Assembly (NCBI GenBank): GCA_046733615.1
Contig: JBKPPP010000004.1
Location: 1 to 45,137 of the forward strand
Direction of reading: 5' to 3'
Length of the DNA: 45,137 bases
Source of the DNA: Acidobacteriota bacterium
GTDB taxonomy: Bacteria > Acidobacteriota > Blastocatellia > Pyrinomonadales > Pyrinomonadaceae
The notes under the pieces are model-generated. The model was not told the origin of the DNA, did no database searches, and worked only from the letters and a program-made list of their open reading frames with translations. Within the stretch, counting starts at the first letter, position 1. Every line of letters starts with the position of its first letter. Below, piece after piece: positions 3,450 through 32,501 of this stretch. The translations under genes and the position numbers were made by a program.

Positions 3450-3452
3450 GGC

Positions 3453-12436: not shown

Positions 12437-12454
12437 CCCGCTTTCGAAACGCGC

Positions 12455-14429: not shown

Positions 14430-14480
14430 ATCGCGGCGGTTCACCCCCGAAAAATTCCCGTAACCAGCAGATACAGAAGG

Positions 14481-14496: not shown

Positions 14497-14557
14497 CTCG
14501 CGCTGGCAGTTGCGAAGACGTGTGAAGGGCAACGTCGAAGGCGAAGGAACGATAAGA

Positions 14558-15709: not shown

Positions 15710-16659
15710 TGACTATCAAACGCATTGTTTGTCCCACTGACTTGTCCGCATACTCAGTCGGCGCGGTGCGTTACGCGCTGGCGCTGTCGCGCGTCCACGA
15801 TGCCGAGTTGATCCTTTTGCACTGCGAACCGCCTTCGGATCGTCTCGACAACGACGAAGAGCTCGGCATTCTGGAGTCGTCGGCGTTGGCTGAGATCAAC
15901 CCGCAGGAGCTCGTTGGCGCGCGCTGGCGGGCGATTGTCGCGACCGCGGAGGACGTGGGCGAGGAGATCATGAACCAGGCACAGTCGCAACACGCCGACT
16001 TGATCGTGATGAGATCGCGACGCCGGCCGCATCGCGCGGCCCTGCTCGGCTCGACGGCCGAAGCGGTGTGTCGCCGCGCGCCGTGCCCGGTGCTGGTGAT
16101 GCACGGCGACGAGCGCGAGTGGGTTGACGACGAGCTCCGCATCGATCTGCGCCGCGTGCTGGTTGCTTACGACTTCTCTGATTACTCCGAGCTGGCGCTC
16201 AACTACGCACTGTCAGTCGCGCAGGAGCATCAGGCAGAGCTCCATCTGCTGCACGTGTTGCCGCCGCGTTCGATAAACGATCCGGAGATTGCGTGGTATC
16301 CGAGCAAAGGCGAGTCGGCTTATCACACGGCTGCGCGCCGTTTGCAGCGAGCCGTGCCGGCTGAGGTCCATCTCTGGTGCACCGTCAAAACGGCCGTCAG
16401 CGAAGGACATCCTTATCGCGAGATTCTCAACTACGCCGAGAAGAACGACATCGACTTGATCAGCGTTGGCGCGCACGGCGCGGGGTTCGGCATGCGGGCT
16501 TTGTTTGGCTCGAACGTCGATCGCGTGTTGCGGCAGTCGCCTTGTCCGGTGCTGGTGGCACGCCCGTTGAAACCGGGAGTGATGCGGGCCAGAGAGGAAG
16601 CAAGCGTTTCGCTCACTTACGAAGGCGAGGGCGAGCGTGAGTTCGAACTGAGCTACTAA
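15706..16659 (+). CDS. Tandem universal stress protein (two UspA domains)
   Basis: ATG 15706 overlaps the upstream stop (ATGA). Two repeats each have ...LLHC/LLHV... and GS(T/N)...V(C/L)R...CPVLV motifs (GSTAEAVCRRAPCPVLVM; GSNVDRVLRQSPCPVLVA). Confidence 0.85.
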   Translation: MMTIKRIVCPTDLSAYSVGAVRYALALSRVHDAELILLHCEPPSDRLDNDEELGILESSALAEINPQELVGARWRAIVATAEDVGEEIMNQAQSQHADLIVMRSRRRPHRAALLGSTAEAVCRRAPCPVLVMHGDEREWVDDELRIDLRRVLVAYDFSDYSELALNYALSVAQEHQAELHLLHVLPPRSINDPEIAWYPSKGESAYHTAARRLQRAVPAEVHLWCTVKTAVSEGHPYREILNYAEKNDIDLISVGAHGAGFGMRALFGSNVDRVLRQSPCPVLVARPLKPGVMRAREEASVSLTYEGEGEREFELSY

Positions 16660-16677
16660 TCTCGCCCGGGAGTCGAT

Positions 16678-18621
16678 ATGGGAGAGCACAACGTCGAACA
16701 AGACTTTCAAGAGACGGACGCGCGGATCTTTATGAAGGCGCTGCTGGAAGATCTGCGGGCGCTGTCGTTCATGCTCGAAAACGGACGCGTTGAGAGCGGC
16801 ATCCGGCGCATCGGAGCGGAGCAGGAGATGTTTCTGATCGACAGCTACCTGCGACCCGCTCCGGTGTCGTTGGAAGTGCTGAGCCAGATTGACGACCCGC
16901 GGCTCACGACTGAGATCGCGCGTTTCAATCTGGAAGCGAACCTCACGCCGCTGCGTTTGACCGGCGCCTGTTTCAGCGAGATGCAGCAGGAGCTCGAGAA
17001 ACTGATCGCGCTGGCGCGGCGCAGTGCGGTCAGCCAGGGCGCAGACATCCTCCTCTCAGGCATTCTGCCGACGCTGCAAAAGTCAGACTTGACGCTCGAT
17101 AACCTCACGCCGGTCGCACGCTATCACGAGTTGAATCGCGGTGTTATTCGTCTGCGCGGCGGCCCGCTTTCGATTCACATCAAAGGGCTCGACGAGCTGC
17201 AGGCCACCCACGACAACATCATGATGGAGTCGTGCAACACCAGCTTCCAGGTCCACTTTCAAAGCACTGCCGGCGAGTTTGTGAATCACTACAACGTGGC
17301 GCAGGCGATCACGGCGCCGGTGCTCGCAGTCGCGGTTAACTCGCCGTTGCTGTTCGGCCGGCGCTTGTGGCAGGAGACGCGCGTCGCGCTGTTCCAGCAT
17401 TCGACTGATGAGCGTTCGTCGTCACAGCTCGCGCGCAGCCAGCCGACACGCGTGAGTTTTGGCGACGAGTGGTTGCGCAACTCGATCGTGGAGCTTTACC
17501 ACGAGCAGATTCTGCGTTTTCGTCCGATCATGATCAGCCGGGCGGACGAGAATCCTTTTGCCGTGCTCGCCCGCGGCGAGACGCCTTCGCTCTCGGCGCT
17601 GCGAATGCACAACGGAACCGTTTGGCGCTGGAATCGCGCCTGCTACGGCGTGACTGACGGCGTGCCGCACCTGCGCATCGAGAACCGCGCGTTGCCGTCC
17701 GGCCCAACGATTACAGACGAGATAGCTAACGCAGCTTTCTTCAGCGGCCTGATGCTGGCGCTCCCTGAAGAGTACGGCGAGATCGCGACGCAGATGGAGT
17801 TTGAAGAGGCGAAGTTGAACTTCTTCCGCGCGGCGCGACACGGCCTCGACGCTCAGTTCCGCTGGATAGGTGGGCAGAGTCTCAGCGCGTCGAAGCTGAT
17901 TTTGAACCACCTCCTGCCGCTCGCGAAACAGGGATTGAGCAGTGCGGAAGTGGCGAGTGAAGACATCGATCGTTACCTCGGCATTATCGAGGAGCGCGCG
18001 CGTTGCGGGCAGACAGGCGCGCGCTGGATCACGAAGTCCTGGGCGGCGATGGGAAACTCGACGTCGAGAGAAACGCGCCGCATGGCACTGACGTCCGCGA
18101 TGTTGAGCAATCAGAAGCAGAATCAACCGGGACACTGTTGGCCCGTGGTTGAAGTCGCCGAGACTGAGCAATGGGAACAGCACTACCAGGTCGTCAGCCA
18201 GTTTATGTCGACCGACTTGTTTACGGTCCATCCGGGCGACTTGATCGATCTCGCGGCAAGCGCGATGAATTGGCGGCACATCCGGCATGTGCCGGTGGAG
18301 GATGAGGATGGACGGCTGGTAGGTTTAGTGACTCATCGCGGTCTGTTGCGAATGATGAGTGGTGGAAGGAGCGAAGCGCTCACCGTGCGGGAGATCATGA
18401 TCGAGAATCCGGTCACCGTTTCGCCGTCGACGACGTCGTTGGAGGCGATGGATCTCATGCGCGGCAATCGCATCGGCTGTTTGCCGGTGGTGGAAGACAA
18501 TCGCCTCGTCGGGATCGTCACGTCGTACGACTTTCTCGAAGCGACGGCAGCACTTTTCAGGCAGCATCTTTCAGCGAAGACGGAAGCGCCCAAGTTTCTG
18601 GCGCAGGCAAACAATGGGTGA
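16678..18621 (+). CDS. Glutamate-cysteine ligase family 2 (carboxylate-amine ligase)-like domain fused to a C-terminal CBS pair
   Basis: N-terminal [12 protein letters not shown] and later GCS2-like blocks. The last ~130 aa form two CBS motifs ([16 protein letters not shown]...[16 protein letters not shown]; [16 protein letters not shown]...[20 protein letters not shown]). Confidence 0.65.
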
Positions 18622-18809
18622 GCGGTACATGTGGAAAATATCCCAAGCAGCGCGGTTTTCTTTGCGACAATATCTCAGTAGTGGGTCATGGCATGAGTAA
18701 AACGCCAGCAAATTTACTAGTTGATTCCTTTGTGCTCTTTGGTACACTCATTGCCAATGACCCTCTGGAGGGCGAGCCAGGGCTCGGTACAGGCGCTCGC
18801 AGTAAGCAC

Positions 18810-19523
18810 ATGGTCGGCGCAAAGCGATGTGCAGTTACGGAGGAGCGGGATCCGCTTATCCCCGAAACGGTTTGTTGTAATTCGGCTTTAGGTGCGCTTC
18901 GCGGCCTGAACGCCGTCAAAACCAGCAGACACCATGCACGCGGTTCGGTGCTGTTTGTCGAAGGTCAAATGCCACGAGGAGTCTATATCCTGTGTGAAGG
19001 TCGTGCGAAAATCTCAATCGCGTCACCCGAAGGCAAGACACTCGTGCTTAGGATTGTTCAGCCTGGTGACGTTTTAGGATTGAATGCCGCACTCACCGGC
19101 TCAACACATACTGCGACGATGCAGGCGCTCGAGCCCTGCCGCGTCGACTTTATACCTCGGAAAGATCTGCTGCGGCTGCTCGATCGTGACAAGCGTGTCT
19201 ATGCCGATGTGGCGCAGGCGTTGAGCTACAAGCTCAATAGCGTGGTAGATCACACCCGGCTGCTGTTCCTGTCGCATTCAGTAACCGAAAGACTGGCGCG
19301 ACTGATGGTTCGGTGGTGTGATGAGGGTGGGAAACGAACCAGCCAGGGAATCAAGATCGTCACAGGTCTTACTCACGAAGAAATCGCCCAGATGATTTGC
19401 ACGTCGCGTGAGACCGTCACGCGACTACTAAGCAAGTTCAAGAAGCAGCATCTGGTCAGCCTTGTCGGCACGACGATTTTTATTCGCAATCGTAAAGCGC
19501 TCGAAGCTCTCGCGGGATTCTGA
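18810..19523 (+). CDS. Crp/Fnr-family transcriptional regulator
   Basis: cNMP-binding-like barrel (GSVLFVEGQMPRGVYILCEGRAKISIASPEGKTLVLRIVQPGDVLG) and C-terminal HTH (LTHEEIAQMICTSRETVTRLLSKFKK). The start was chosen at the internal ATG giving 237 aa; the ORF is open from 18618. Confidence 0.8.
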   Translation: MVGAKRCAVTEERDPLIPETVCCNSALGALRGLNAVKTSRHHARGSVLFVEGQMPRGVYILCEGRAKISIASPEGKTLVLRIVQPGDVLGLNAALTGSTHTATMQALEPCRVDFIPRKDLLRLLDRDKRVYADVAQALSYKLNSVVDHTRLLFLSHSVTERLARLMVRWCDEGGKRTSQGIKIVTGLTHEEIAQMICTSRETVTRLLSKFKKQHLVSLVGTTIFIRNRKALEALAGF

Positions 19524-19614: not shown

Positions 19615-20622
19615 ATGATTAAGTTTCTTATTATTCTCGCTCTGCTTGTAGCGGTGATGTGGCTCGCCACGGGAACCTATTCACAGTCTGCCCCGACAGG
19701 CCAGTCTCAAGCTAAGACTCAAACGCAATCACCCCACGCCAACAGCGGCGACTACGTGGGCAGCGAAGCGTGCAAGGATTGTCACGAGGATCAATTCAAA
19801 AACTTCTCTCATACGACGCACGCGCGTCTGACCATGCTCGCCAGTTGGAAAGATCGCGTGACAGGCTGTGAATCATGTCACGGACCCGGCAAGGCCCACA
19901 TCGAAGAAGGCGATCCCAAAAAGATCATGTCCTTCAAGAACAAGCCGCCCAAGGAGATCTCCGAGACCTGTTTGACTTGTCACTCCGGCAGGGAAGAGCA
20001 CAACAACTTCCGCCGCGGCGAGCACTGGCGTAATGATATCGGGTGCATCGATTGCCATGCGCCCCATTCACCGGCCACTGGCCGGCAACTTGCCGCTTCC
20101 AACGTCTTCGTTTCACCCGCAAACGCACAGAAGCCCGGTTTCTCCACGATTAAGCTGCTCAGAAATAGCGAGCCGCAATTGTGCCTGGGCTGTCATGGCG
20201 AAATGAAGCACCAGTTTAATTTGCCCTTCCATCACAAGGTGCTGGAAGGAGCAATGAAGTGCAGCGATTGCCACAATCCGCACGGCGGTTTCGAACTTAA
20301 ACAAACGCGATTGGCGACAGGCGCGGATGCGGCCTGTATCAAGTGTCACGCTGACAAACAAGGCCCATTCGTATACGAGCACGCGCCGGTCAAGACCGAA
20401 GGTTGCATCGCGTGTCATACACCTCACGGGTCGTCCAACCCACGGCTGTTGATTACGAGCAGGGTCGGACAGCTCTGTCTGACGTGTCACAGCTCGGCCC
20501 ACGGGGTTGGCGCCGACGAACCGGCAGGTCCGCAGCATAACCAAAATGCGCAATACGCTAATTGCACAAACTGTCACGTCAAGATTCACGGTTCACGTAC
20601 GAGTCCAGTCTTTTTCAGGTAA
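19615..20622 (+). CDS. Periplasmic decaheme c-type cytochrome, MtrA/DmsE/PioA/MtoA-like
   Basis: 335 aa with a signal peptide. Exactly ten CXXCH motifs (CKDCH, CESCH, CLTCH, CIDCH, CLGCH, CSDCH, CIKCH, CIACH, CLTCH, CTNCH). C-terminal CTNCHVKIHGS resembles the MtrA-family ending. GAGGTG RBS. Confidence 0.85.
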   Translation: MIKFLIILALLVAVMWLATGTYSQSAPTGQSQAKTQTQSPHANSGDYVGSEACKDCHEDQFKNFSHTTHARLTMLASWKDRVTGCESCHGPGKAHIEEGDPKKIMSFKNKPPKEISETCLTCHSGREEHNNFRRGEHWRNDIGCIDCHAPHSPATGRQLAASNVFVSPANAQKPGFSTIKLLRNSEPQLCLGCHGEMKHQFNLPFHHKVLEGAMKCSDCHNPHGGFELKQTRLATGADAACIKCHADKQGPFVYEHAPVKTEGCIACHTPHGSSNPRLLITSRVGQLCLTCHSSAHGVGADEPAGPQHNQNAQYANCTNCHVKIHGSRTSPVFFR

Positions 20623-20667
20623 CCGTATTGTGAATCGTGGCGGCGGGCTAAGTCGGGAGGATGTCCC

Positions 20668-22860
20668 ATGACAAGGAAACCAGAGCGAGCGTACTTGATA
20701 CTTTCGGGAATAGTATTGTTGCTGATGATAGTGTCGGCGCAAGCTCAGCAACCGTCGCCCACGCCAAAAACCGATAACAATCAACCTGGTGCGCCCGTCG
20801 AAGCAGGCGAGGACGCAGGTGACTACACGGTCATCTCGAGTTTGGAGTTCGGTTATCGGGGAATAAGACTCGACGGCGACGAGAACAAGTACAAGAGCGA
20901 TCTCAATTACAAGGCTGGCCCACGCCTGTTCGACAGTAGTTTCCTAATGAGATCGCAGGACGGCAAATCGAATTTTTTCAATACCCTGCTCGTGACTTCG
21001 ACTGGTTGGGGAGCTGACCCGCAGGGCAATTTCAGAATAAGCGTCGAGAATCCAAAGTGGTATCGCTTTGACGGCACTTACCGCCGTTTCAAATACTTTC
21101 GTTTTCTGAATACCTTTGCCAATCCAAACTGGGTATTTAGTCCGCCGCAGTTTAGTGTGCCGCCGAAGCCCGGGACCGGTGAGCACGGCTTCAACACGAA
21201 AACCACGATGGGAGATTTTGATCTCACCATCCTGCCGAAGAACGAACGAATCAGATTCAACGTCGGATACTCGCCGGAACGTTACAATGGCCCTGCGTTC
21301 ACGAACTACCACTCCGGCGGAAACGAATTCAATCTCCTGTCGAATCTCAGATCCCGAGCGAACGACTTCCGCGTGGGAGCGGACGGGCGGATTGGCGGGG
21401 TCAATTTCTCGTTCCTCCAGGGTTTTCGCCGTTTTCGTGACGACAGCTCTATCGATTCCGGCGTGAATCCGGGCATCAACGTGAACCCGACCGCCGCGAA
21501 TCTCACCACTTTCCACCGCAACGAGCCCGCGCGCGGCAGCGTTAATTACACGCGCTTCAGCTTGCAGACGCTGATTGCCGGAAAACTCGATATCACAGGC
21601 CGCATCATCTACAGCAAGGCGAAGCAGACCTACGATTTTGCTGAGAACTTCACCGGCCGCAACTGGAACCCGCGAATCACGGGATTCCCGCCCAGCCCGC
21701 CGGCCGCAACGCCGAATATTCTCAACCTGGGCCAGTACGTTCTGAATGGTGAATCCGAACGGCCCAATACGCTCGGAGACATCGGATTGACGTACCGCTT
21801 CAACGAGCATTTCCGGCTTTCAAACACGTTTCGCGTAGAAGATTTCAAGATCGACGGCTTCGCCCTGTTCAGTGATTTCTTCTCGCTCACGCGCGGAACG
21901 AGGACCGATACGATCGGATTCAGTAACAACAACGTAAACACGTTGACCAAGTACCGGAAATACCAGAACCTGGTCGAAGGCGACTACCAGTTCAATAATC
22001 GCTACTCGGTCCACCTTGGATATCGTTACGCGAGGCGCCGGATCGAGGAAGAGCTGAGCGGTTTTAACCTCGGCTCGAATTCGCCCACGCCGCTAACTCC
22101 GGAGAGTTTTGAGGAACACAACAACACCAACGTAGTGATTGGCGGTTTCAAAGCGCGGCCGCTCACTGACTGGACGATCTACTTCGACGCCGAACACGGC
22201 ACGGCCGACAACGTCTTCACTCGAATCGGAAACTACAACTTCACCAATGTTCGAGCTAAGAGCCGGTACAAACCGAGTCGAAATGTGGCGTTCAATGTGT
22301 CGTACATTACGAAAAACAATTCCAACCCTTCGGAGATCGCCGGTGTTTCGCTCGAAGACTTTGGCGTAAGCGTGAAATCGCGTCTCTTCTCCACGACTCT
22401 TGATTGGACTCCTGATTCAAGAGCGTCGTTCAGCACCGGATACAACTACCACTGGATCACCAGCAATTCCGCTATTGAATACTTCTTCAATAGTGTACAG
22501 CACCCGTTTGGTCACAGTGTCTATTACAGCCGGAACAACTTCTTCTTTATCGATGCGGTGCTCCAGCCGGCTCGCCGCGTGACACTATTCACGTCGTACC
22601 GGATCAATAAAGATAACGGTCAGGGCAATCGAGTTGCCGACCCGACCGGTAATCCCGGATTGCTGATCGCTTCTTATCCGATGAGTTTCCAGTCACCCGA
22701 AGCGCGGCTGGCGATCAAGTTACATCATCGACTTGATTGGAACATTGGCTACCAGTATTACAACTACGACGAAAGCGCGATTGTCGGTCCAAGACCGCAG
22801 AACTATCACGTACACCTCCCATACACGTCGTTGCGAATTTACATCGGTCGAAGAGAATAG
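20668..22860 (+). CDS. Large outer-membrane beta-barrel protein, MtrB/PioB-like porin partner of the decaheme
   Basis: 730 aa, signal peptide ...LLLMIVSAQAQQ, no Cys. Alternating aromatic/polar beta-strand pattern throughout (many Y/F/W-x-G/N/D turns). GGGAGG RBS. Position immediately 3' of an MtrA-like gene and a size like MtrB (about 700 aa). Family assignment is inferred, not searched. Confidence 0.6.
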   Translation: MTRKPERAYLILSGIVLLLMIVSAQAQQPSPTPKTDNNQPGAPVEAGEDAGDYTVISSLEFGYRGIRLDGDENKYKSDLNYKAGPRLFDSSFLMRSQDGKSNFFNTLLVTSTGWGADPQGNFRISVENPKWYRFDGTYRRFKYFRFLNTFANPNWVFSPPQFSVPPKPGTGEHGFNTKTTMGDFDLTILPKNERIRFNVGYSPERYNGPAFTNYHSGGNEFNLLSNLRSRANDFRVGADGRIGGVNFSFLQGFRRFRDDSSIDSGVNPGINVNPTAANLTTFHRNEPARGSVNYTRFSLQTLIAGKLDITGRIIYSKAKQTYDFAENFTGRNWNPRITGFPPSPPAATPNILNLGQYVLNGESERPNTLGDIGLTYRFNEHFRLSNTFRVEDFKIDGFALFSDFFSLTRGTRTDTIGFSNNNVNTLTKYRKYQNLVEGDYQFNNRYSVHLGYRYARRRIEEELSGFNLGSNSPTPLTPESFEEHNNTNVVIGGFKARPLTDWTIYFDAEHGTADNVFTRIGNYNFTNVRAKSRYKPSRNVAFNVSYITKNNSNPSEIAGVSLEDFGVSVKSRLFSTTLDWTPDSRASFSTGYNYHWITSNSAIEYFFNSVQHPFGHSVYYSRNNFFFIDAVLQPARRVTLFTSYRINKDNGQGNRVADPTGNPGLLIASYPMSFQSPEARLAIKLHHRLDWNIGYQYYNYDESAIVGPRPQNYHVHLPYTSLRIYIGRRE

Positions 22861-22920
22861 AGTTAGAAACGAAGGCCACGGTAAGTTGCAGTTTCAGTTC
22901 TGATAACTCCGGAGGACTGA

Positions 22921-23403
22921 GTGGGCGACATTATTGCCGATAAGACAACTGGCCCAGGCCGCGATCCTGCATTACAAACAACGTCCCGTCGCAAGTTCCT
23001 CGATTACTTGCTCGGAACCAGTGCAGTCGCGACCCTGGGTGCGATCTTGTATCCGATCATCCGGTTCATGGTGCCGCCGCACATCGTGGAGGCACTGCAA
23101 AACTCCGTGGTGGCCGCCAAGGTGACTGAGCTCCCGCCAAACTCGGCGAAGATCTTCAAATTCGGCAGCAAACCCGGGATTGTTATCCGCACGGCGTCCG
23201 GAGAATTGAAGGCCTTCTCAGCCGTGTGCACCCACCTCGACTGCATCGTGCAGTATCGTCAGGATACGAAACAGATCTGGTGCGCCTGCCATAACGGTCA
23301 ATACAACCTCAACGGAGAAAACATCGGCGGTCCCCCGCCGCGGCCCCTGGAAGAATATGTAGTGAACAAACGAGGCGACGACATTGTAGTAAACAGATCC
23401 TGA
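22921..23403 (+). CDS. Rieske [2Fe-2S] subunit of a cytochrome bc/b6f-type complex, Tat-exported
   Basis: GTG start after GGAGGA. Twin-arginine motif [11 protein letters not shown] plus TM helix. Rieske boxes CTHLDC and CACHNG. Confidence 0.88.
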
Positions 23404-23408
23404 AGCCG

Positions 23409-24473
23409 ATGAAAGTCGACACAGTGAAAAGCTGGCTTGATGAGCGTCTCTACATAAGCGCGCTCACCCAGGCGGCGCAGAAGAAAGAAGTTCCGCTTCA
23501 CCGTCAGTCAATCTGGTACTACTTCGGTGGTATGACGCTGTTTCTTTTCGTGGTCCAGGTGGTCACGGGAATCCTGTTATTGCTCTACTACCGGCCGAGC
23601 GCTGAAAACGCGTTTGAGAGCGTTCAGTTCATCATGACTGAGGTGAAGTTTGGCTGGCTGATCCGTTCAATTCATAGTTGGTCGGCGAACCTGATGATTC
23701 TGACGCTGTTCATCCACCTGTTCAGCGTCTATTTCATGCGCGCTTACAACCGGCCTCGCGAGATCACGTGGGTCAGCGGCGTGGTGCTGCTGTTCATTTC
23801 CATCTGTTTTGGGTTCAGCGGGTATTTACTGCCGTGGAACGAGGTCTCGTTCTTTGCTACGAAGGTGGGCACTGAGATTGCCGGCGTCATTCCAGTCGTC
23901 GGCAAGACAATGTTGCGCTTCCTGCGCGGCGGTGACGAAGTGACCGGCGCCACGTTGACGCGCTTTTTCGGATTTCACGTCGCAGTGCTACCGGCAATGG
24001 CGACGGTATTTGTATTTGTGCACGTCCTGCTGGTCCAGGTGCACGGCATGCATGTTCCGGCTCGTTATGAACAGAATAGCCGGCGCATAAAATTCTTTCC
24101 AAACTTCATAATGCGCGACGCGATCGGGTGGTTATTCGCAATTGGCGCGTTGGCTGCACTCGCCGCCATTTTCCCTTGGGAGCTCGGCGTCAAAGCGGAT
24201 CCGTTTGCGCCGGCCCCGGCCGGAATAAAACCGGAATGGTATTTCCTGTTCATGTTTCAAACACTGAAATACATTCCAGCGAAGATTCTCAGTATTGATG
24301 GCGAAGTTCTCGGCATTCTTTTTTTCATGTTGGCAGGCGGCGCCCTGTTTCTGGTGCCGTTCATTAATCGCTCTGCGGAGCAGCATCCGCGCCGCAGGCT
24401 GGTGTTCAATCTACTCGGAATTATCGCGATCTTGTTCATGGCAGTTATGACGGTGATCGGGTATTTAGCGTGA
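23409..24473 (+). CDS. Cytochrome b (fused b6 + subunit IV type)
   Basis: [30 protein letters not shown]. Helix B has H-x13-H ([15 protein letters not shown]) and helix D has H-x14-H ([16 protein letters not shown]), which is b6-like spacing. Qo-site PEWY motif ([15 protein letters not shown]). Confidence 0.9.
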
Positions 24474-25756
24474 TAACGAGAATCCGATTACTTTTGCTGT
24501 TTGCGGCCGGCGTGTTGTTGATTACTGCCTGCCCGGCCGCTGCTCAGCAGAAAAACTCGTGTCTCGAGTGTCACAGCAAACTGGAAGGAGAATTCGGCGC
24601 GCCCGCGCGTTCGATTAAAGACGACATTCATCTTTCCAGAGGTCTCTCCTGCAACGATTGCCACGGCGGCGATCCGACCAAGGACGACAAGGACGCCGCG
24701 AAAGACAGATCGAAAGGTTATTTGGGGCGGCCTCGAACGGTAGATATTCCCGCCTTCTGCGGCAAGTGTCACAACGATGCGAGCTTTATGAAGAAGTTTA
24801 ATCCGGCTTTGCGAGTGGACCAGGAGAAGGAGTACTCGACCAGCGTTCACGGACAACTGCTAAAAAAGGGAAACGAGAAGGTCGCCACCTGTATCAGTTG
24901 TCATGGCGTGCACGGAATTCGCGCCGTGAGCGACGCTCTTTCTTCAGTGTACCCGTCGAACGTTGCGGAGACCTGTTCCAAGTGCCACAGCGAAGCGGGC
25001 CGGATGGCCGAATTCAAAATTCCGACAGATCAATACTCGAGGTACAAGAAGAGTGTTCATGCGAAGGCGTTGTATGAGAAGCAGGATCTCAGTGCTCCGA
25101 CATGCAACGACTGTCATGGTAATCATGGCGCGGCTCCTCCGGGCATCGCGTCGGTGGCAAATGTTTGCGGGCAGTGTCACGCACGGCAGGCGGAGCTGTT
25201 TCAAGCCAGCCCACACAAAGTCGCGTTCGATAACGCGGGATTTGGCGAGTGCATCAAGTGTCATAACAACCACGACATCTACCCGCCCACCGATGCTCTG
25301 ATAGGCACAGGCGAAAACTCTATTTGTATATCGTGTCATAAACCGGGCGACAAAGGATTCATCGCTGCCGGCCAAATGCGCGGCGCGATCGACGACCTGT
25401 TGGCTCGTATCAAGCGCTCGGAGGAGATACTGGGTCGGGCGGAACGCGCAGGCATGGAAGTAAGTAAGCCCAAGTTTGATTTGCGTGAGGCAATTGACGG
25501 CGTTACTCATGCACGCGTGCTGATCCACACCTCATCTCCCGCGGAAGTCGACAAGCTGGTTGTGCCGGCGGTCGGGGTTGCGACAAAGGCGTACGAGTCT
25601 GGACAGGGCGCGCTTGCGGAGTTGAATGTTAGACGCAAAGGTCTGGTGGTCTCACTATTTTTTATCCTGTTCCTGGCGTTTCTGGTGTATTTAAAGCTGA
25701 GAGAAATTGAGAGACGGCGGCCAGCCGAGGGATTTTCAAAGAGTGGCGGCACCTAA
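24470..25756 (+). CDS. Membrane-anchored nonaheme c-type cytochrome (occupies the cytochrome c1/f position of the Rieske/cyt b operon)
   Basis: GTG start overlaps the cyt b stop (GTGA). Nine CXXCH motifs. N-terminal signal with possible lipobox LITAC. Helical region and C-terminal TM helix [18 protein letters not shown]. Three motifs are of the CxxCHxxHxI type. Confidence 0.8.
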
Positions 25757-25765
25757 AAAGGACAA

Positions 25766-26968
25766 ATGCGCATACCGGTACAAGGGACAATCTCCTTCTT
25801 AGCGTGTCTCGTTTTCTTGCTCTGCTTCGGCGGTTTCATCGACGCGCACGATTCGTCGGTAGTCGCTCAGACGCGTCGTCGTGCGCGGCCACGACAGAGT
25901 CAACCACAGAAGCCGCGCATCGACTACTCGAGATTTTCGCACCACACTCACGTCCAGACGCAAAAGCTTGCCTGTGATTCGTGCCATAAGTTTCCCTCGA
26001 AAAACTGGAAAGAAGTTCGTAAGGGCGACGATGCGTTCGCCGACGTGACTGACTTTCCCGAACACCAGGCCTGTCTCAACTGTCATCGCACACAGTTCTT
26101 CGCGCGTGAACGGCCGGCGCCGGTCATCTGTTCGAACTGTCACGTTGCGGTTACTCCAAAAAACACCGCGCGGCATCCATTTCCAAGTCTGGGCGCACCA
26201 TTCCTGAGCACGCGTCCGGATTTCGTTTCGGAGTTCAAGGTTGCGTTTCCACATGAGAAACACGTGGACGTGGTGGGTAGCCTGCGTTTCAGACTTCGCG
26301 ATGATCGGACATTCGCTTTTGCTCATGCATCGTACACGCGGGATGATGCGCAGTCTAAGAGTTGCGTCGTATGCCATCACACCTACCAGCCCCAGGGAAA
26401 GTCGAGTGACGAGTTTGTTACCCCGCCGCCGAAGAACCTGCCCGAAGACGCGTTCTGGTTGAAGAAGGGCGCCTTCAAAACAACACCGACTACCCACAGC
26501 GATTGTTCCACTTGTCACAACGAAGAGGCGGGGATCGCTCCTTCGCCAAAGGACTGTGCTGCCTGTCATAAGTTTTCGCCTGCGGTTACTGAGCCGCTGC
26601 GCGACTTCGATCCAAAACTCGCCGCGACGATGCGCGTAACTGATTGGGTGATGCTGCGAAAGTGGTCACGACGCAGCGCCGGACGTTATCGACACGAGTT
26701 CGATGTTCATAATGAGATGGGTTGTACGTCCTGCCATAACCCGGCCGTGATGAACACGCTCGACGAGAGAACGTTTGTTTCGGTGAAGTCGTGCGGCGGG
26801 AGCGGTGGCTGTCACATTGAAACAAATACGGAAGGCATTCTGAACTACGAGATCGAACAGAAGAAAAAGAATCCGGCGTTCCATTGTGTCAAGTGCCACA
26901 TCATAATAGGCAAGAACCCCGTTCCGCAGGATCACCTGGACGCGATCCCGAAAGCGCCAACGAAATAA
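25766..26968 (+). CDS. Multiheme c-type cytochrome, c7/c3-like repeats (8 CXXCH + 1 CX5CH)
   Basis: 400 aa with a hydrophobic N-terminus. Eight CXXCH motifs plus CGGSGGCH. Repeated F-x-H-x-x-H strings (FSHHTH, FPHEKH) are typical of c7/c3 domains. Confidence 0.8.
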   Translation: MRIPVQGTISFLACLVFLLCFGGFIDAHDSSVVAQTRRRARPRQSQPQKPRIDYSRFSHHTHVQTQKLACDSCHKFPSKNWKEVRKGDDAFADVTDFPEHQACLNCHRTQFFARERPAPVICSNCHVAVTPKNTARHPFPSLGAPFLSTRPDFVSEFKVAFPHEKHVDVVGSLRFRLRDDRTFAFAHASYTRDDAQSKSCVVCHHTYQPQGKSSDEFVTPPPKNLPEDAFWLKKGAFKTTPTTHSDCSTCHNEEAGIAPSPKDCAACHKFSPAVTEPLRDFDPKLAATMRVTDWVMLRKWSRRSAGRYRHEFDVHNEMGCTSCHNPAVMNTLDERTFVSVKSCGGSGGCHIETNTEGILNYEIEQKKKNPAFHCVKCHIIIGKNPVPQDHLDAIPKAPTK

Positions 26969-27792
26969 TGCTGGAAGAGACTACAGGCAAACCGCGCGTA
27001 TCGTTATTGCTTTGCGCCTTCATGGGCGTCGTCGTCTTTTGTATGGCCCAACCGAGCGCCGCGGCGCAGGAGCCGAGTCTTGATTACTCGAAGTTTCTTC
27101 ACACGACGCAGAACCATGCGCGCATGCCTTGTTTGTTATGTCACAGGCGAGAGAGCAATTCGCCCCGGCCTGCTCTGCCGGGTGCGGCGCAGCACGCCCC
27201 TTGCGCGGGATGCCATGCGCAGCAGTTTGCGAATAAAGAGAGTCCCATCTGCACGATTTGTCATACCGACGTCAATTCCGGCGCGACGAAGCCTTTCCCG
27301 CCGCTGAAGAGTTTCCGCGTCAACTTCGATCACGGAAAACACTTGAGTATGGGTGGCGTGAGTTGTGCTACCTGTCATCGGCCCGCAAGAGGCGGTGTCG
27401 CGCTCTCGATTCCGGCCGGCTTCAATGCCCATTCGACCTGCTTTACCTGTCACACGCCTCGTGCAAAATCCGGCGATCGAGACATTTCTTCCTGCGGAAC
27501 GTGCCATAAAGTCGGCGGTTACTCCAGAACGCCTCAGTGGACCGCGGCTTTTCGCATGAGTTTCAGTCACGCTAAACATGGCTCGGGGCAGAAGCTGAGT
27601 TGTGACGACTGTCATCAGGTGAGAACCGGCTTGCCGCAGAGCCGACAAGTGACTGCTCCGGAGCCTGCTAATCATCACGCGAGCGGGCGAACCCAGAGTT
27701 GCATGACTTGTCATGATGGCAAGCGGGCGTTTGGCGGTGATGATTTCTCTGTTTGCAAGCGATGTCACACAGGAGTGCGGTGGCAGTTTTGA
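26968..27792 (+). CDS. Nonaheme c-type cytochrome built of c7-type triheme modules
   Basis: ATG 26968 overlaps the preceding TAA (TAATG). Signal peptide ...VVFCMAQPSAAAQ. Nine CXXCH in about 250 mature residues, with FDHGKH and FSHAKH strings. Confidence 0.8.
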   Translation: MLEETTGKPRVSLLLCAFMGVVVFCMAQPSAAAQEPSLDYSKFLHTTQNHARMPCLLCHRRESNSPRPALPGAAQHAPCAGCHAQQFANKESPICTICHTDVNSGATKPFPPLKSFRVNFDHGKHLSMGGVSCATCHRPARGGVALSIPAGFNAHSTCFTCHTPRAKSGDRDISSCGTCHKVGGYSRTPQWTAAFRMSFSHAKHGSGQKLSCDDCHQVRTGLPQSRQVTAPEPANHHASGRTQSCMTCHDGKRAFGGDDFSVCKRCHTGVRWQF

Positions 27793-27845
27793 TGTGAAGC
27801 CCCCAACGTTGAATTCGTTTTGAGAAGTTTCCAGGAGGTGTGAAC

Positions 27846-28421
27846 ATGAAGCGCTTCATCGCTGTCGTTATCGTTTTCGGCGCGCTTGTCCTTTACTTCA
27901 ACTTGGCGGGGCCACTCCGCGATGCAGCAGCACAGGATGCTAAGAAGCCGCAGGATACTTATGTGCTCGCTCAGGAGGCGAAACTGGGTACGGTTACCTT
28001 CAGTCATCTCAATCACACGACAAAGAATCGCAATTCCGAAGGCACCGGCCCGAGTGCGTGTATTGAGTGTCACCATACAGCACAGCCTGCTGCTGAGGCA
28101 GCCAAGCATCCGCCACTCAAGACGGTCTGGCCTGCGGATCGAACCACGACGCTGACTGCTGAAACGTTGGCGAAGGATCCAAACGCCGTCGGCGCAGTCT
28201 GCCGCGACTGTCACGCGCGCGCCGATACCAAGCCGAAATTGCTGCCGGAGATTCCGCAGATAAAACTTGAAGTTGGCACCGAGCTGGTGACGCTGACAAA
28301 CCAGCAGGCATTCCATCGCAACTGTGCCGGGTGTCATGACCAGGTCGCCAAGGCGAGGACTGACGTGAATCCTCCCACTTCGAAGAAGTGCACGGCTTGT
28401 CACAAGAAAACAGCCGCCTGA
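27846..28421 (+). CDS. Tetraheme cytochrome c3-family protein
   Basis: MKRFIAVVIVFGALVLYFNLA signal/anchor. Four CXXCH (CIECH, CRDCH, CAGCH, CTACH). VTFSHLNH string. GGAGGTG RBS. Confidence 0.8.
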   Translation: MKRFIAVVIVFGALVLYFNLAGPLRDAAAQDAKKPQDTYVLAQEAKLGTVTFSHLNHTTKNRNSEGTGPSACIECHHTAQPAAEAAKHPPLKTVWPADRTTTLTAETLAKDPNAVGAVCRDCHARADTKPKLLPEIPQIKLEVGTELVTLTNQQAFHRNCAGCHDQVAKARTDVNPPTSKKCTACHKKTAA

Positions 28422-28436
28422 TGCGGGTGAGAGTGA

Positions 28437-28475
28437 CTGCGGAAAGTTTCCCAGTTCTGCGCCAACAACCGCAGA
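28437..28475. promoter_or_regulatory. Candidate enhancer (UAS): CTGCGGAAAGTTTCC plus inverted repeat TCTGCG-N8-CGCAGA
   Basis: GGAAA-G-TTTCC palindrome preceded by CTGCG (28437-28452), and an inverted repeat at 28456-28475. Both lie about 40-78 bp upstream of the -24 element at 28514. Same architecture as 14392-14429. Confidence 0.35.
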
Positions 28476-28513
28476 TTTGCCGGATTTTCAGGCGTTTTGC
28501 TGTGTATAAGAAG

Positions 28514-28529
28514 CGGCACGCTCATTGCT
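28514..28529 (+). promoter_or_regulatory. Candidate sigma54 (-24/-12) promoter
   Basis: CGGCACGCTCATTGCT matches TGGCACG-N4-TTGCW at all conserved positions except the first T. Lies 63 nt upstream of ATG 28592 in a 170-nt gap. Confidence 0.6.
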
Positions 28530-28591
28530 CCTCGAACGGCGCGGGAGGCTAACCCCGGCTCGTAAAGTTGCTACATGAGAGGGCTGAAGCG

Positions 28592-28921
28592 ATGAAAAAC
28601 TTGATTGGTTGGACCAGACTAACGCTCATGCTGGGCGGTATCATATCTGTGGCGGCATTATTCATGGTGACGGCGGCGCCTGCGCGCACGAGTAATGATG
28701 ACGACGCGGCCGCAATGTTTAAATCAAAATGTGTCGCGTGCCACGGAGCAACGGCCGAGAAGAAGTTCGACGCGACCAAAGCTGACGATGTGCTTGTCCA
28801 GACTGTCTTGAAAGGCAGAAAGCTGGAGAAGCCACCGAACATGCCGGCCTACGAAGAGAAGGGCATTACAGAAGACCAGGCCAAGGCACTGGTCGCCTTT
28901 ATGAAATCGTTGAAGAAGTAG
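28592..28921 (+). CDS. Monoheme class I cytochrome c
   Basis: ATG after GAGGG. Signal/anchor helix. Single CVACHG with distal Met candidate in PPNMPAY. 109 aa. Confidence 0.8.
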   Translation: MKNLIGWTRLTLMLGGIISVAALFMVTAAPARTSNDDDAAAMFKSKCVACHGATAEKKFDATKADDVLVQTVLKGRKLEKPPNMPAYEEKGITEDQAKALVAFMKSLKK

Positions 28922-29034
28922 CTGCCGATTTAGAAAAACTGAACGGGCCATAAACAGACACAGAGCACAAGCAGAGTGAATTTTACTTCGCTTGTGCGCT
29001 TGTGTTTGTTATGGCTCTTTACTGCATCCGCTTA

Positions 29035-30930
29035 ATGAAACGTTGGGCAACATTTCTGGTAGTGTTGTTCGCCTTGTCTTTCGTGTGCGTTGGTTTGCAA
29101 ACGCAGTTGAGTCATGCGCAGCGTTCGGCAGCCACACCAACGCCATCGCCCAGTCCGTCCCCCGCTCAAACGAGCGCACCGAATCTGCAATGTCAGGGTT
29201 GTCACGCGCCCGGTAAGACTCTGCCGTATCTCGGCGGCGCCAAGTTCCACACGGACGTGCACACCGCCTACGACCACGGCTTTCACGCTCAGGCAATTCA
29301 GGGTGGACGCAAAGCCGCGACTTGCATCGATTGCCATACTCGAAACGGAGACATGACGACGATCCTGCCCGGTGCGGATCCAAATTCGACTATTCATCGC
29401 AGAAACATCGCCGACACTTGCGGCCGCTGTCATGGCGACAAGTCGGTCATGCAAGGCAGCGGGATTAGCGATCGGCCGTTTCTTTCCTATCGCGAGAGCG
29501 TGCATGCGAAGGCGATCGCGCAGGGTAATATCAACGCGGCCGTTTGCACTGACTGTCACAACAGTCACGACATTCTTCCCGCTTCCAATCCCCAGTCGCC
29601 GATCACAAAGGTGAACATACCCGCGACGTGTAGCAAGTGTCACAAGGCTGAAACCGCGGAGTTCATGCAGAGTATTCACGGCCAAGCGGTGACGCGCGGT
29701 GTGTCGCGCTCTCCGGTGTGCACGGACTGTCACGGAATTCACAACATCGTCGCGCCGGTTGAGCGAGCCACCGCGACAGTCTCGAGCGCTGTCGCCACTG
29801 AAACCTGTGCTCGTTGTCATGAAGGCGTTACGCTGACCAAGGAATTCGGCGTCGCCGGCGAGCGCGTCAGCAGCTACAAGGATAGTTACCACGGGCTGGC
29901 GTCACGGATGGGTTCGCGCGTGGTGGCAAACTGTGCGAGCTGTCACGGTGTACACAACATCCTCCCCTCATCGGATCCGAGCTCGATGATCAATATAAGC
30001 AACCTGCCTCACACCTGCGGACAGTGTCACGTTGGCGCGGGTGCTAAATTCGCCACCGGCAGGATTCATCTGACTTCAGAGTTGATCGCTGCAAATGGCG
30101 CACGCGATCTGGGTGCAATCGGGACGCGTATTGTTCGCTGGATTTACATTCCGCTGATCGTGCTGGTGATTGGAGGGATGGTGGTTCACAACGCGCTCGT
30201 TTGGGGGCGCAAGGTCGTAGCGCGCAAGCACGAGAAACGCGAGATTGTTCGTCTGACTCGCAATCAGCGAGTGCAGCACTGGCTATTGCTGACCAGCTTT
30301 ATCGTCCTCGTGCTGAGTGGCTTCGCGCTTCAATATCCTGACTCCTGGCTCGCAGCGATGTTAGGTGGTAACGAGTATCTGCGACGAATAATTCATCGCG
30401 TCGCCGCCGTAGTGATGCTGGTTGTCGGCGCGTATCATCTCGTCTACCTGGCCAAAGCAAAAGAAGGCCGCCTGTGGGTGAAAGACATGCTTGTCAGGGG
30501 CAAAGACTTCAGAGATTTGCTCGGCAACTTCGGCTATTATCTCGGCATGTCGAAAGCCAGGCCGAAGTTTGCTCGGTTCGGCTATGCTGAGAAGGCTGAG
30601 TATTGGGCCGTGTTGTGGGGAACGCTCGTCATGGGCCTCACCGGTCTGATGATCTGGTTCAAGCTGGGCATTTTTGCATTTCTGCCGCGATGGGCCATCG
30701 ACGTCGCGCTCTCGATTCACTTTTACGAAGCGGTGCTGGCGACGCTCGCGATTGTGGTTTGGCACTTCTATCACGTAATTTTTGACCCCGACGTCTATCC
30801 CGTCAACTTCGCCTTTCTGGATGGCCGTGTCTCCACCGAGCATTACCGAGAAGAGCACGGACTAGCCTACGAACAACAACAGCAAGAACAAACTGAAGAA
30901 CAAGCTGGAGAACAAACAGGTACGCCATGA
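29035..30930 (+). CDS. Fusion of a periplasmic nonaheme c-type cytochrome domain with a C-terminal membrane b-type cytochrome domain (HydC/FdnI-like); CbcL-like
   Basis: Signal peptide MKRWATFLVVLFALSFVCVGLQ. Nine CXXCH. Then at least four hydrophobic segments with conserved His (VQHWLLL, IHRVAAVVMLVVGAYHLVY, HFYEAVLATLAIVVWHFYH). GTG 29002 or ATG 29011 are alternative starts. Confidence 0.8.
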   Translation: MKRWATFLVVLFALSFVCVGLQTQLSHAQRSAATPTPSPSPSPAQTSAPNLQCQGCHAPGKTLPYLGGAKFHTDVHTAYDHGFHAQAIQGGRKAATCIDCHTRNGDMTTILPGADPNSTIHRRNIADTCGRCHGDKSVMQGSGISDRPFLSYRESVHAKAIAQGNINAAVCTDCHNSHDILPASNPQSPITKVNIPATCSKCHKAETAEFMQSIHGQAVTRGVSRSPVCTDCHGIHNIVAPVERATATVSSAVATETCARCHEGVTLTKEFGVAGERVSSYKDSYHGLASRMGSRVVANCASCHGVHNILPSSDPSSMINISNLPHTCGQCHVGAGAKFATGRIHLTSELIAANGARDLGAIGTRIVRWIYIPLIVLVIGGMVVHNALVWGRKVVARKHEKREIVRLTRNQRVQHWLLLTSFIVLVLSGFALQYPDSWLAAMLGGNEYLRRIIHRVAAVVMLVVGAYHLVYLAKAKEGRLWVKDMLVRGKDFRDLLGNFGYYLGMSKARPKFARFGYAEKAEYWAVLWGTLVMGLTGLMIWFKLGIFAFLPRWAIDVALSIHFYEAVLATLAIVVWHFYHVIFDPDVYPVNFAFLDGRVSTEHYREEHGLAYEQQQQEQTEEQAGEQTGTP

Positions 30931-32501
30931 GCGAAACTAAAAAGCCGAGCACGAGACTAACCAGTCTTTTCCGCAACTACATCAGTTTCGTCGGTGCAGC
31001 GATCGCCACTGCGGCTCTCGTAAGCACTGTGCTGTTGTTTTTGGTTGAGATTAGTTCGCACCTGGAAAATCCTTATCTTGGCATTCTGACTTACATAATC
31101 TTTCCGTCGATTCTCTTGCTGGGTTTGATAATCGTGGTCATCGGGATGATGGTCGAGAGACGCCGGCGGCATCGCGGATCGCCCGAACAGATCGCAGCTT
31201 ACCCGAAACTGGATCTGAACGACCCACGCGCACGTAAGGCATTCTTCGTCTTTCTCGTGGCCACGTTTCTTTTCATCTGTGCGAGCGCCTTCGGCAGTTA
31301 CAAAGCTTACGAATACACGGAGTCGGTCGAGTTTTGTGGTGCGACCTGTCACAAGCCGATGAAACCCGAGTACACGGCTTACAGGGCCGGAGCCCACGCG
31401 CGCGTCGGCTGTGTTGGCTGTCACGTCGGACCAGGGGCCGGTTGGTACGTCCGTTCGAAACTCTCCGGCGCGTATCAGCTCTATTCCGTGTCTTTCAATA
31501 AGTATCCTAGGCCGATCACAACGCCCGTTCATAATCTTCGGCCGGCGCCTGAGACATGCGAGCAGTGTCACTGGCCCGAGAAGTTCTTTGGCGCTCAACT
31601 GAAAGTCTTTAATCATTACGCGTACGACGAGAAAAACACGTTACGGCAAATGCGCCTGCTGATTAACGTCGGCGGCGGCAGCCCAACCACCGGTGCGGTC
31701 GCGGGAATTCATTGGCACATGAACATCTCCAATACCATCGACTACATCTCGACCGACGATCATCGCCAGGTGATACCGTGGATACGCATCAAGGATCGCC
31801 AGGGAAACGTGACCGAGTACTACGATCGTTCGCGGCCACTGACGCAGCAACAGATCGCCGGCTCTGAAAAGCGGCGCATGGACTGCGTCGACTGTCATAA
31901 TCGTCCGGCGCATTCATACCTTCCGCCGGACGTCGCGGTGGACCATTCCCTCGCCGCGGGTAGACTCGATCCATCCTTACCCTATCTCAAGCGACAGGCA
32001 GTCGGAGCGCTGAACAAGGAATACAGTACCGAGGATGAAGCGGTGAAGACGATCGCGCAGAGTCTCGACGGCTTTTACCGGACAAACTACAGCGATCTGT
32101 ATGCGCAGAAACCCGATGTCATCAAAGGCGCGATCGACGAGACACAGCGAATCTACAAGACCTATTTCTTTCCGGAGATGAAGACCAATTGGGAGACTCA
32201 TCCCAACAACATCGGCCATCTCTATTCATCGGGTTGTTTTCGCTGTCATGACGGTGAGCACGTCAGTAACACGGGGAAGGTGATTCGTAACGACTGCACT
32301 ATTTGTCACACTATGCTGTCCGACTCCGCGCGCCCCGCGGCAGCCAATCAAACACCCACACCTCAGCATCCGGTTGATCTGGGTGGACTGGCCGATCGCA
32401 AGTGCGAAACGTGTCACAAAGCGAATGAGCCGTTTCGCCATCCGGTTAATCTGGGAGACATTTCGATGTTTCAGTGCGTGGAGTGTCACCCGAAGAAGTG
32501 A
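30927..32501 (+). CDS. Inner-membrane multiheme cytochrome with three N-terminal TM helices and a NapC/NirT-like region (7 CXXCH + 1 CX3CH); ImcH-like
   Basis: ATG overlaps the upstream stop (ATGA). Three hydrophobic helices in the first 125 aa. NapC/NirT-like string SVEFCGATCHKPMKPEYTAYRAGAHARVGCVGCH. Seven canonical CXXCH. Confidence 0.75.
   Translation: MSETKKPSTRLTSLFRNYISFVGAAIATAALVSTVLLFLVEISSHLENPYLGILTYIIFPSILLLGLIIVVIGMMVERRRRHRGSPEQIAAYPKLDLNDPRARKAFFVFLVATFLFICASAFGSYKAYEYTESVEFCGATCHKPMKPEYTAYRAGAHARVGCVGCHVGPGAGWYVRSKLSGAYQLYSVSFNKYPRPITTPVHNLRPAPETCEQCHWPEKFFGAQLKVFNHYAYDEKNTLRQMRLLINVGGGSPTTGAVAGIHWHMNISNTIDYISTDDHRQVIPWIRIKDRQGNVTEYYDRSRPLTQQQIAGSEKRRMDCVDCHNRPAHSYLPPDVAVDHSLAAGRLDPSLPYLKRQAVGALNKEYSTEDEAVKTIAQSLDGFYRTNYSDLYAQKPDVIKGAIDETQRIYKTYFFPEMKTNWETHPNNIGHLYSSGCFRCHDGEHVSNTGKVIRNDCTICHTMLSDSARPAAANQTPTPQHPVDLGGLADRKCETCHKANEPFRHPVNLGDISMFQCVECHPKK

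Follow-up and report, generated by a model that had tools for sequence, protein, structure and literature searches.

Our analysis indicates that the 45,137-nucleotide stretch considered here (hereafter the window; positions 1 to 45,137 of contig JBKPPP010000004.1, from an Acidobacteriota bacterium of the family Pyrinomonadaceae) carries, at positions 22921-25756 of the forward strand, three closely packed genes that encode a Rieske protein, a cytochrome b and a nonaheme c-type cytochrome, in that order. The three products probably form a single membrane complex of the bc1/b6f superfamily, with the nonaheme protein as its c-type subunit and a multiheme or extracellular electron route as its outlet. 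The first-pass annotation of this DNA had proposed that the nonaheme protein stands in place of cytochrome c1 or f as the third subunit, and this assignment is well supported by the conserved neighborhood of the three genes and by natural 'Rosetta stone' fusions of cytochrome b with a multiheme domain, which themselves follow a Rieske gene. We infer the physical assembly of the trio in this organism from sequence comparison, and it is plausible that the complex works as a proton-motive gate that leads into a multiheme or extracellular chain. The three genes are as follows:

22921-23403, forward strand: Rieske [2Fe-2S] subunit, 160 amino acids (aa), from the open reading frame, domains and motifs
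23409-24473, forward strand: cytochrome b, a single chain of b6-like and subunit-IV-like parts, 354 aa, from domains and motifs
24470-25756, forward strand: nonaheme c-type cytochrome, proposed equivalent of c1 or f, 428 aa, from nine CXXCH motifs and multiheme Pfam domains

Two samples of relatives were used to follow the linkage of these genes, namely a close one of 80 GTDB species loci, nearly all from Pyrinomonadaceae or Blastocatellia metagenome-assembled genomes (MAGs), and a wider one of 80 metagenome loci with 44–84% identity, 64 of which had room upstream. Within the close family, the Rieske-cytochrome b-nonaheme order was retained in every locus with upstream DNA, and cytochrome b and the nonaheme gene were both found in all 72 evaluable genome loci, the latter directly after the former. 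Among the metagenome loci, all three genes lay in one cluster in 64/64 evaluable cases, down to 44% identity, and cytochrome b was directly upstream of the nonaheme gene, with the Rieske gene before it, in 62 of these 64. The exceptions are L121, where a gene for a 580-aa polytopic membrane protein (2996-4738) lies between cytochrome b and the nonaheme gene, and L158, where the order is nonaheme, Rieske, cytochrome b (6001-8833). The inserted membrane protein of L121 is reminiscent of the extra transmembrane (TM) helices in some of the fusions described below. The flanking genes are rearranged: they are permuted in four loci (L022, L027, L036 and L043), where the CbcL-like and ImcH-like genes lie upstream, and inverted in L061-L075. 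The 4-nucleotide (nt) GTGA overlap between cytochrome b and the nonaheme gene, to which the first-pass annotation had drawn attention, is present in the window and shared solely with the closest relative (L001); over the 72 loci, the spacing ranges from −4 to about 300 nt (with start codons chosen approximately), and the conserved trait is the adjacency of the two genes, not their overlap.

The natural fusions provide the second line of evidence. They amount to at least 93 protein clusters, mostly from Thermoanaerobaculia, since 93 of the 119 hits to one fusion (P0274) join cytochrome b to a multiheme domain; 66 of these fusions have 11 CXXCH motifs, 9 have 10 and 18 have nine. The fusion proteins (P0275-P0388) are about 790-1012 aa long, combine the Pfam N- and C-terminal cytochrome b domains with multiheme domains, and were seen repeatedly in independent assemblies; the databases annotate them merely as 'cytochrome b N-terminal domain-containing protein' or 'cytochrome b6'. 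In the nine-heme fusions, the inter-heme spacing is that of the window protein, and the C-terminal anchor follows about 107 residues past the last heme. For fusion P0379, identity is 60% with the window cytochrome b over its residues 4-352, and 48% with the nonaheme protein over residues 27-416. By our reading of the sequences, 0, 2 or 4 TM helices link the two parts in most fusions, which would place the fused heme domain in the periplasm. One further fusion (P0188, 790 aa, a single instance) was set aside, as its junction is a run of lysines (presumably poly-A in the DNA) and, again by our reading, the helices added to it are even in number, so that its heme domain would face the cytoplasm. 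Structure prediction of P0379 from an alignment of 57 fusions gave a mean predicted local distance difference test score (pLDDT) of 78.7 and a predicted template modeling score of 0.59, with the heme domain at a pLDDT of 80-90, and a Foldseek search with this model gave cytochrome b matches only, among the 50 listed. Each of the four fusion loci inspected has a Rieske gene that stops 1-35 nt upstream of the fusion gene, and its boxes read CTHL(D/S)C and CACHNG or CNCHGG. The fusion genes lie at the following positions of these loci:

L081, 8001-10856: fusion gene
L082, 8001-10862: fusion gene
L083, 9001-11370: fusion gene
L084, 9001-11409: fusion gene

These data bear directly on another arrangement, in which the nonaheme protein would be just a co-transcribed, independently anchored partner of the Rieske/b pair, with the true c1 equivalent encoded elsewhere (e.g., by the monoheme gene at 28568-28921) or lacking. 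Such an arrangement has a parallel in the green sulfur bacteria, namely in Chlorobaculum, the source of the closest Rieske structure, where the operon has two genes and the monoheme acceptor c-556 is encoded by a separate gene, CT0073 (PMC10172866); in addition, the monoheme gene is conserved in most Pyrinomonadaceae loci. However, the fusions fix the nonaheme module to cytochrome b in a 1:1 ratio in relatives, and the monoheme gene is never adjacent to the trio, varies in position and is missing beside the fusions (L081-L083). A separate c1- or f-type gene was also looked for, and the window holds none: no c1 or f family match was found among its genes, and no open reading frame for a c-type cytochrome was found in it outside 19.6-32.5 kilobases (kb). 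We therefore regard an independent partner as very improbable and return to the nonaheme protein as the c-type subunit of the complex.

The features that had been claimed for the Rieske and cytochrome b genes, from the Tat motif to the heme-ligand spacing, were all recovered. The Rieske gene starts with GTG, 7 nt downstream of GGAGGA, and its TGA stop codon (23401-23403) is separated by 5 nt from the ATG of cytochrome b at 23409. Its product has a twin-arginine (Tat) motif, SRRKFL, at residue 23, a single TM segment at residues 29-47, and the two Rieske boxes CTHLDC (at 103) and CACHNGQY (from 121); the Tat motif likely belongs to an uncleaved TM anchor. Pfam matches comprise Rieske (4.5e-14) and the PetC TM anchor (TM_PetC), and the nearest NCBIfam models are of b6f/PetC type, with scores below their cut-offs. 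Among solved structures, the Chlorobaculum tepidum Rieske protein, which is of the menaquinol type, is the nearest (8hn2, 5e-17), followed by Kuenenia Rieske proteins (9rk4, 9e-13). Since box II has a Gly at the position where high-potential Rieske proteins have a Ser (CPCHGS), established knowledge of this residue suggests a low- to mid-potential cluster of the menaquinol type.

Cytochrome b matches both Pfam domains of its family (PF00033 at 6.7e-56 and PF00032 at 8.9e-13) and has seven hydrophobic TM helices, heme ligands at His89/His103 (H-x13-H) and His190/His205 (H-x14-H), and the PEWY motif of the Qo site at residue 275. The best structural matches to its N-terminal part are of cytochrome b6 (3e-62), and the NCBIfam models for b6 and ExtP score 244 bits (cut-off 325) and 212.6 bits (cut-off 290), respectively. 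Where b6 has CxGG, the window protein has YFGG, without the Cys for covalent heme cn. The trio shares with canonical bc1 and b6f complexes the Rieske boxes, the four heme-ligand His, PEWY and, in its proposed c subunit, a C-terminal TM anchor, and it differs from each. Compared with bc1, which has H-x13-H on both helices, it has seven rather than eight helices, H-x14-H on helix D and no c1 match; compared with b6f, it shares H-x14-H with b6, but its cytochrome b is a single 354-aa gene product, and there is neither a heme-cn Cys nor a cytochrome f. The seven-helix PEWY cytochrome b and the predicted low- to mid-potential Rieske cluster fit the description of the Chlorobi/NC10/Acidobacteria clade of cytochrome b (Kao and Hunte 2014, PMC4122944), which bears PEWY and whose Rieske proteins are predicted to be of low to mid potential; cytochrome b fusions with class I cytochrome c domains are known from the same survey (PMC4122944).

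The nonaheme protein has the 428 aa, nine CXXCH motifs, helical region and single C-terminal TM helix that were first described for it. Translation starts at the GTG within GTGA, overlapping the cytochrome b stop codon by 4 nt, and the CXXCH motifs lie at residues 31, 61, 97, 141, 169, 212, 233, 261 and 286. About 0.002 such motifs would be expected by chance in 428 aa (a rough estimate from typical Cys and His frequencies, made without a tool), so nine are far beyond chance. Conservation was assessed over 78 full-length representatives of the family with at most 50% mutual identity, and the protein divides into four parts:

24470-24544, forward strand: signal peptide, residues 1-25 (MITRIR, a hydrophobic core, then AAA/QQ, the slash marking the cleavage site)
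24545-25351, forward strand: periplasmic nine-heme domain, residues 26-294, from conservation among the 78 representatives
25352-25642, forward strand: helical stalk, residues 295-391, which holds His353, from AlphaFold2 (pLDDT 75-95) and conservation
25643-25699, forward strand: C-terminal TM anchor, residues 392-410, then a short basic cytoplasmic tail, from hydropathy

All nine CXXCH motifs are invariant across 78/78 representatives, and the C-terminal TM anchor, a feature that c1 and f also carry, was found in 74 of them. Candidate distal ligands are likewise invariant at His54, 127, 148, 197, 219 and 268, while His249 is 86% conserved; His353, on the second helix of the stalk, reaches 97%, His347 lacks conservation, and Met107 and Met179 are kept in 94-96%. 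With eight conserved His and one or two Met for nine distal positions, seven or eight hemes may have bis-His ligation, and possibly one is a higher-potential His/Met heme. One heme may be ligated from the stalk, and hence lie near the membrane, which makes it a candidate entry heme. AlphaFold2 predicted confident long helices at residues 295-326, 332-351 and 357-416, the last of which enters the membrane anchor; with the 22-sequence alignment used, the heme domain was poorly predicted (pLDDT <50), and only the C-terminal helices are usable.

The possible lipobox (LITAC) that the first-pass annotation read in the signal peptide did not hold up. Cys21 is present in the window protein, but it is conserved in 1% of the 78 representatives and absent in most close homologues, and a signal-peptidase-I site (A-x-A/Q) is general across the family. 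Lipidation is thus improbable as a family trait, and the notion of a lipoprotein was discarded. A PDB sequence search with the nonaheme protein gave marginal NrfB-like matches only, and its heme domain is paralogous to the nine-heme domain of the CbcL-like protein, the gene of which lies 3 kb downstream (BLASTP 3e-22, 30% identity). A tandem version of the module was also seen, in a 760-aa protein (P0121) with 18 CXXCH motifs and a single C-terminal stalk and anchor, on two contigs of at most 95 kb.

The trio lies within a run of forward-strand genes of about 13 kb (19615-32501), in which spacings are short or overlapping. The other genes of this run, and the regulator before it, are:

18618-19523, forward strand: Crp/Fnr-family regulator, immediately upstream of the cluster
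19615-20622, forward strand: MtrA/DmsE-family decaheme cytochrome, 335 aa, 10 CXXCH (NCBIfam decahem_SO, 236 bits, above cut-off)
20668-22860, forward strand: 730-aa secreted protein, putative outer-membrane barrel partner of the decaheme, from position and composition
25766-26968, forward strand: 8-heme c-type cytochrome
26884 or 26968 to 27792, forward strand: 9-heme c7-type cytochrome, 302 aa as listed
27840-28421, forward strand: 4-heme c-type cytochrome
28568-28921, forward strand: monoheme class I cytochrome c
29002-30930, forward strand: CbcL-like quinol oxidase, 642 aa, with nine CXXCH and an FdnI/HydC-type diheme b membrane domain
30927-32501, forward strand: ImcH-like quinol oxidase, 524 aa, with three TM segments and a NapC/NirT-type N-terminal region

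The decaheme matches chain A of PDB entry 6r2q at 1e-31; the match table labels this chain 'Cystathionine beta-synthase', and we take the entry to be the Shewanella MtrCAB structure, with MtrA as chain A. The 730-aa protein has a signal peptide and no Cys, is rich in Asn, Gly, Ser, Tyr and Phe, and gave no Pfam match and no PDB sequence match. For the 9-heme c7-type gene, the listed TTG start (26884) overlaps the preceding gene by 85 nt, and the ATG at 26968, which gives a 1-nt stop overlap and a normal signal peptide, is the likelier start. The 642-aa protein has the architecture described for CbcL (preprint 10.1101/2021.04.15.440034). The ImcH-like gene overlaps the CbcL-like gene by 4 nt, and the heme motifs of its product begin with a CX3CH (CGATCH) and continue with seven CXXCH; a first motif of the CX3CH type is among the hallmarks of ImcH (PMC4251993). 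Taken together with the trio, these two proteins amount to three different putative quinol-oxidizing gates in one Acidobacteriota cluster, beside an MtrA-like decaheme. This setting is shared by relatives, as at least one of the decaheme, outer-membrane protein, CbcL-like and ImcH-like genes lies nearby in 61/63 loci with enough flanking DNA. A promoter and terminator scan of the cluster gave results near chance level and was uninformative.

The cluster content points to extracellular electron transfer, and a mechanism may be proposed for the complex. Menaquinol would be oxidized at a Qo site built by the PEWY loop and the Rieske cluster; one electron would pass via the two b hemes to the Qi site, in a proton-motive Q cycle, while the mobile Rieske head would deliver the other to the membrane-proximal heme of the nonaheme subunit, which would be tethered to the complex by its C-terminal TM helix and three-helix stalk. 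From there, the electron would travel along the nine-heme wire, and its most likely next carriers are the periplasmic multiheme cytochromes of the cluster and the MtrA-like decaheme/outer-membrane module. In this way, the complex would act as a proton-motive inner-membrane gate of extracellular electron transfer, beside the CbcL-like and ImcH-like gates, which would work without a Q cycle. Given the menaquinol-type features of the Rieske protein and the fit of its PEWY cytochrome b with the Chlorobi/NC10/Acidobacteria clade, a low-potential chain is to be expected. The direct hand-over of electrons into a periplasmic multiheme chain, as suggested in the first-pass annotation, agrees with the genes present (the MtrA-like decaheme and the 8-, 9- and 4-heme cytochromes), and we infer the flow itself, including its direction, from this content.

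Several observations weigh against this proposal. Bis-His multiheme cytochromes are usually of low potential, which makes them awkward acceptors for a Rieske cluster near +100 to +150 mV, and only one or two conserved Met (M107 and M179) hint at a higher-potential His/Met heme in the nonaheme subunit. The 4-nt overlap with cytochrome b is not a conserved property of the family. The putative outer-membrane role of the 730-aa protein is read from two things only, its position by the MtrA-like gene and its composition. Finally, no extracellular-electron-transfer genes were found near three of the four fusion loci inspected (L081-L083), and the whole family may consequently serve general respiration rather than extracellular transfer specifically.

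This last point leads to the possibility that the trio is a general menaquinol:cytochrome c oxidoreductase, i.e., the complex III of the organism, whose nine-heme subunit would feed any acceptor present (e.g., terminal oxidases or N-oxide reductases) and for which the extracellular-transfer genes would be one client among several. The three loci just named are indeed two-gene units of Rieske and fusion genes amid housekeeping and regulatory genes, with no porin-cytochrome module, and the family is very widespread (626 clusters, some of them from Armatimonadota). However, genes of the extracellular-transfer type lie next to the trio in 61/63 loci of the unfused family with enough flanking DNA, and the window trio is surrounded by such genes, with short or overlapping spacings. 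We consider a general complex III somewhat unlikely.

The same genes could also be read in the opposite direction. Extracellular Fe(II), reduced humics or minerals would then donate electrons through the MtrA/MtoA-like module and the periplasmic cytochromes to the nonaheme subunit, from which they would either go uphill through the Rieske/b part to menaquinone at the expense of the proton-motive force, or be split off to an oxidase via the monoheme cytochrome c. The petI bc1 complex of Acidithiobacillus ferrooxidans is the established model for such uphill flow. In line with this reversed mode, decahemes of the DmsE/MtrA family with an outer-membrane partner also serve Fe(II) oxidizers (MtoAB, PioAB), the cluster encodes a class I monoheme cytochrome c, a typical oxidase donor, the described Pyrinomonadaceae are aerobes, and CbcL homologues have been grouped with MtoC/MtrH (PMC6295460). 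On the other hand, the cluster has an ImcH-like gene, and outward transfer to high-potential acceptors is the role described for ImcH so far (PMC4251993); the Crp/Fnr regulator and tandem universal-stress-protein genes upstream fit induction at low oxygen, and the window holds no carbon-fixation or oxidase genes. None of these points is decisive; we regard the reversed mode as unlikely and outward flow through the complex into the multiheme chain as the more probable course.

The regions upstream of the cluster supply some further context. Positions 14480-19523 encode a pyridine-nucleotide-disulfide oxidoreductase, a tandem universal stress protein, a two-CBS-domain protein, whose N-terminus has a weak match only to a domain of the glutamate-cysteine-ligase family, and the Crp/Fnr regulator, and this group looks like a low-oxygen or stress regulon. 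Before it, a sigma-54 response regulator and a PAS histidine kinase are found at 10973-14386. Genes flanking two of the fusions (L083, 14423-19302; L084, 3580-8422) comprise a PAS kinase, a protoglobin-domain kinase, a sigma-54 activator and a small c554-like cytochrome. A regulatory link may thus be common to the window cluster and the fusions, reminiscent of the control of cbcBA by BccR in Geobacter. The polyphosphate kinase 1 gene at 7156-9336, followed by genes for a DUF4956/MgtC-like protein and a metallophosphoesterase, is unrelated to the trio.

The statement that multiheme replacements of c1 or f are known in a few lineages was correct (Geobacter, PMC2825233; Kuenenia, PMC12954380), and these systems deserve a close comparison. 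In Geobacter, the Rieske/b genes of GSU2930-2937, with 10- and 12-heme cytochromes, were noted in 2010 (PMC2825233). Like the trio, this Cbc6/Ext system (cbcMNOPQR / extKLMNOPQS) combines a Rieske protein and a b6-like cytochrome b with large multihemes instead of c1 or f, and it occurs in an organism or cluster setting of extracellular electron transfer. Its partners, however, have 10, 12, 5 and 2 hemes and are not orthologues of the single, C-terminally anchored nonaheme subunit, and the seven-helix cytochrome b of the trio, a fusion of b6-like and subunit-IV-like parts, is unlike that of Cbc6/Ext. Among the Ext equivalogs of NCBIfam, ExtM matched at 25 bits against a cut-off of 800 (N-terminus only), ExtN gave no match, and the Rieske protein gave no match to ExtO. 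Tetraheme versions of the Rieske/b partner have been cited for deltaproteobacteria.

In Kuenenia, a hexa- or octaheme cytochrome c replaces cytochrome f in the complexes Kustd1480-1485 and Kuste4569-4574, as the nonaheme protein would do here, and AlphaFold models place the TM helix of the multiheme protein at a fixed position on the Rieske/b complex (PMC12954380). A c domain is fused to cytochrome b in Kuste3096-3097, with two hemes only (PMC12954380). The anammox complexes differ from the trio in having split b6/subunit IV and an NAD(P) oxidoreductase subunit, and one of them also has an HAO-like octaheme; none of these is found in or near the trio. CbcL (Geobacter GSU0274), for its part, resembles the trio in joining a b-type quinol-oxidizing membrane module to a nine-heme domain of the same repeat family. 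In CbcL, however, the module is an FdnI/HydC-type diheme b that works without a Rieske protein or a Q cycle, and the heme domain is N-terminal and fused, whereas the nonaheme subunit is a separate protein without a b-type domain, with a C-terminal stalk and anchor, and goes with a bc-type cytochrome b.

The Geobacter and anammox precedents lower the novelty of a multiheme replacement as such. The kind of system is known, and the trio stands out as a distinct c-subunit family that is related to the CbcL heme domain, widespread and unusually clean; no description of the Acidobacteriota nonaheme subunit family, or of cytochrome b fusions with nonaheme or undecaheme domains, was found in the literature, the coverage of which was incomplete, so that this is not proof of none. 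The best homologues of the nonaheme protein come from MAGs named Pyrinomonadaceae, Blastocatellia or 'Chloracidobacterium sp.' (Acidobacteriota) and are annotated as 'cytochrome c3 family protein'. At least 238 species-level GTDB genomes encode a close relative, and an exhaustive, profile-free search at E<=1e-30 gave the 626 clusters of relatives (at 50% identity) mentioned above, many of them full-length (about 415-445 aa); several of the longer hits carry a cytochrome b fused to the multiheme module. Two full-length members with 35-36% identity (P0200 and P0218) come from MAGs named Armatimonadota, and a 53%-identical locus (L080) from a bin labeled Alphaproteobacteria. Either the family may reach outside Acidobacteriota, or the bins in question may contain contaminating sequence.

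Of the steps of extracellular electron transfer, the exit of electrons from the quinone pool is understood least, and it is this step that determines the energy yield. To our knowledge, none of the known gates (CymA, ImcH, CbcL and CbcBA) is a Q-cycle enzyme, and the Rieske/b and multiheme clusters of Geobacter and anammox bacteria still await a settled role. The trio has a single, well-defined nonaheme c subunit, natural fusions that fix this subunit to cytochrome b, and a tight linkage to genes of the porin-cytochrome, CbcL-like and ImcH-like types, and it occurs in soil bacteria that are abundant. It is therefore a clean candidate for a test of whether electrons from a proton-motive complex III can enter a multiheme chain, be it extracellular or periplasmic. 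The Rieske-cytochrome b-nonaheme trio is also a marker for annotating respiratory potential in Acidobacteriota MAGs. As a tentative and still doubtful, though possible, broader view, soil Acidobacteriota (Blastocatellia/Pyrinomonadaceae, and Thermoanaerobaculia with the fused versions) may use a proton-motive, Q-cycle Rieske/b complex with a nine-heme wire as an inner-membrane gate of extracellular transfer beside CbcL-like and ImcH-like gates. If this were true, the cell could choose between high-yield and low-yield gates according to the potential of the acceptor, and the nonaheme module common to CbcL and the trio would be a portable 'wire' plugged onto two unrelated quinol-oxidizing membrane modules.

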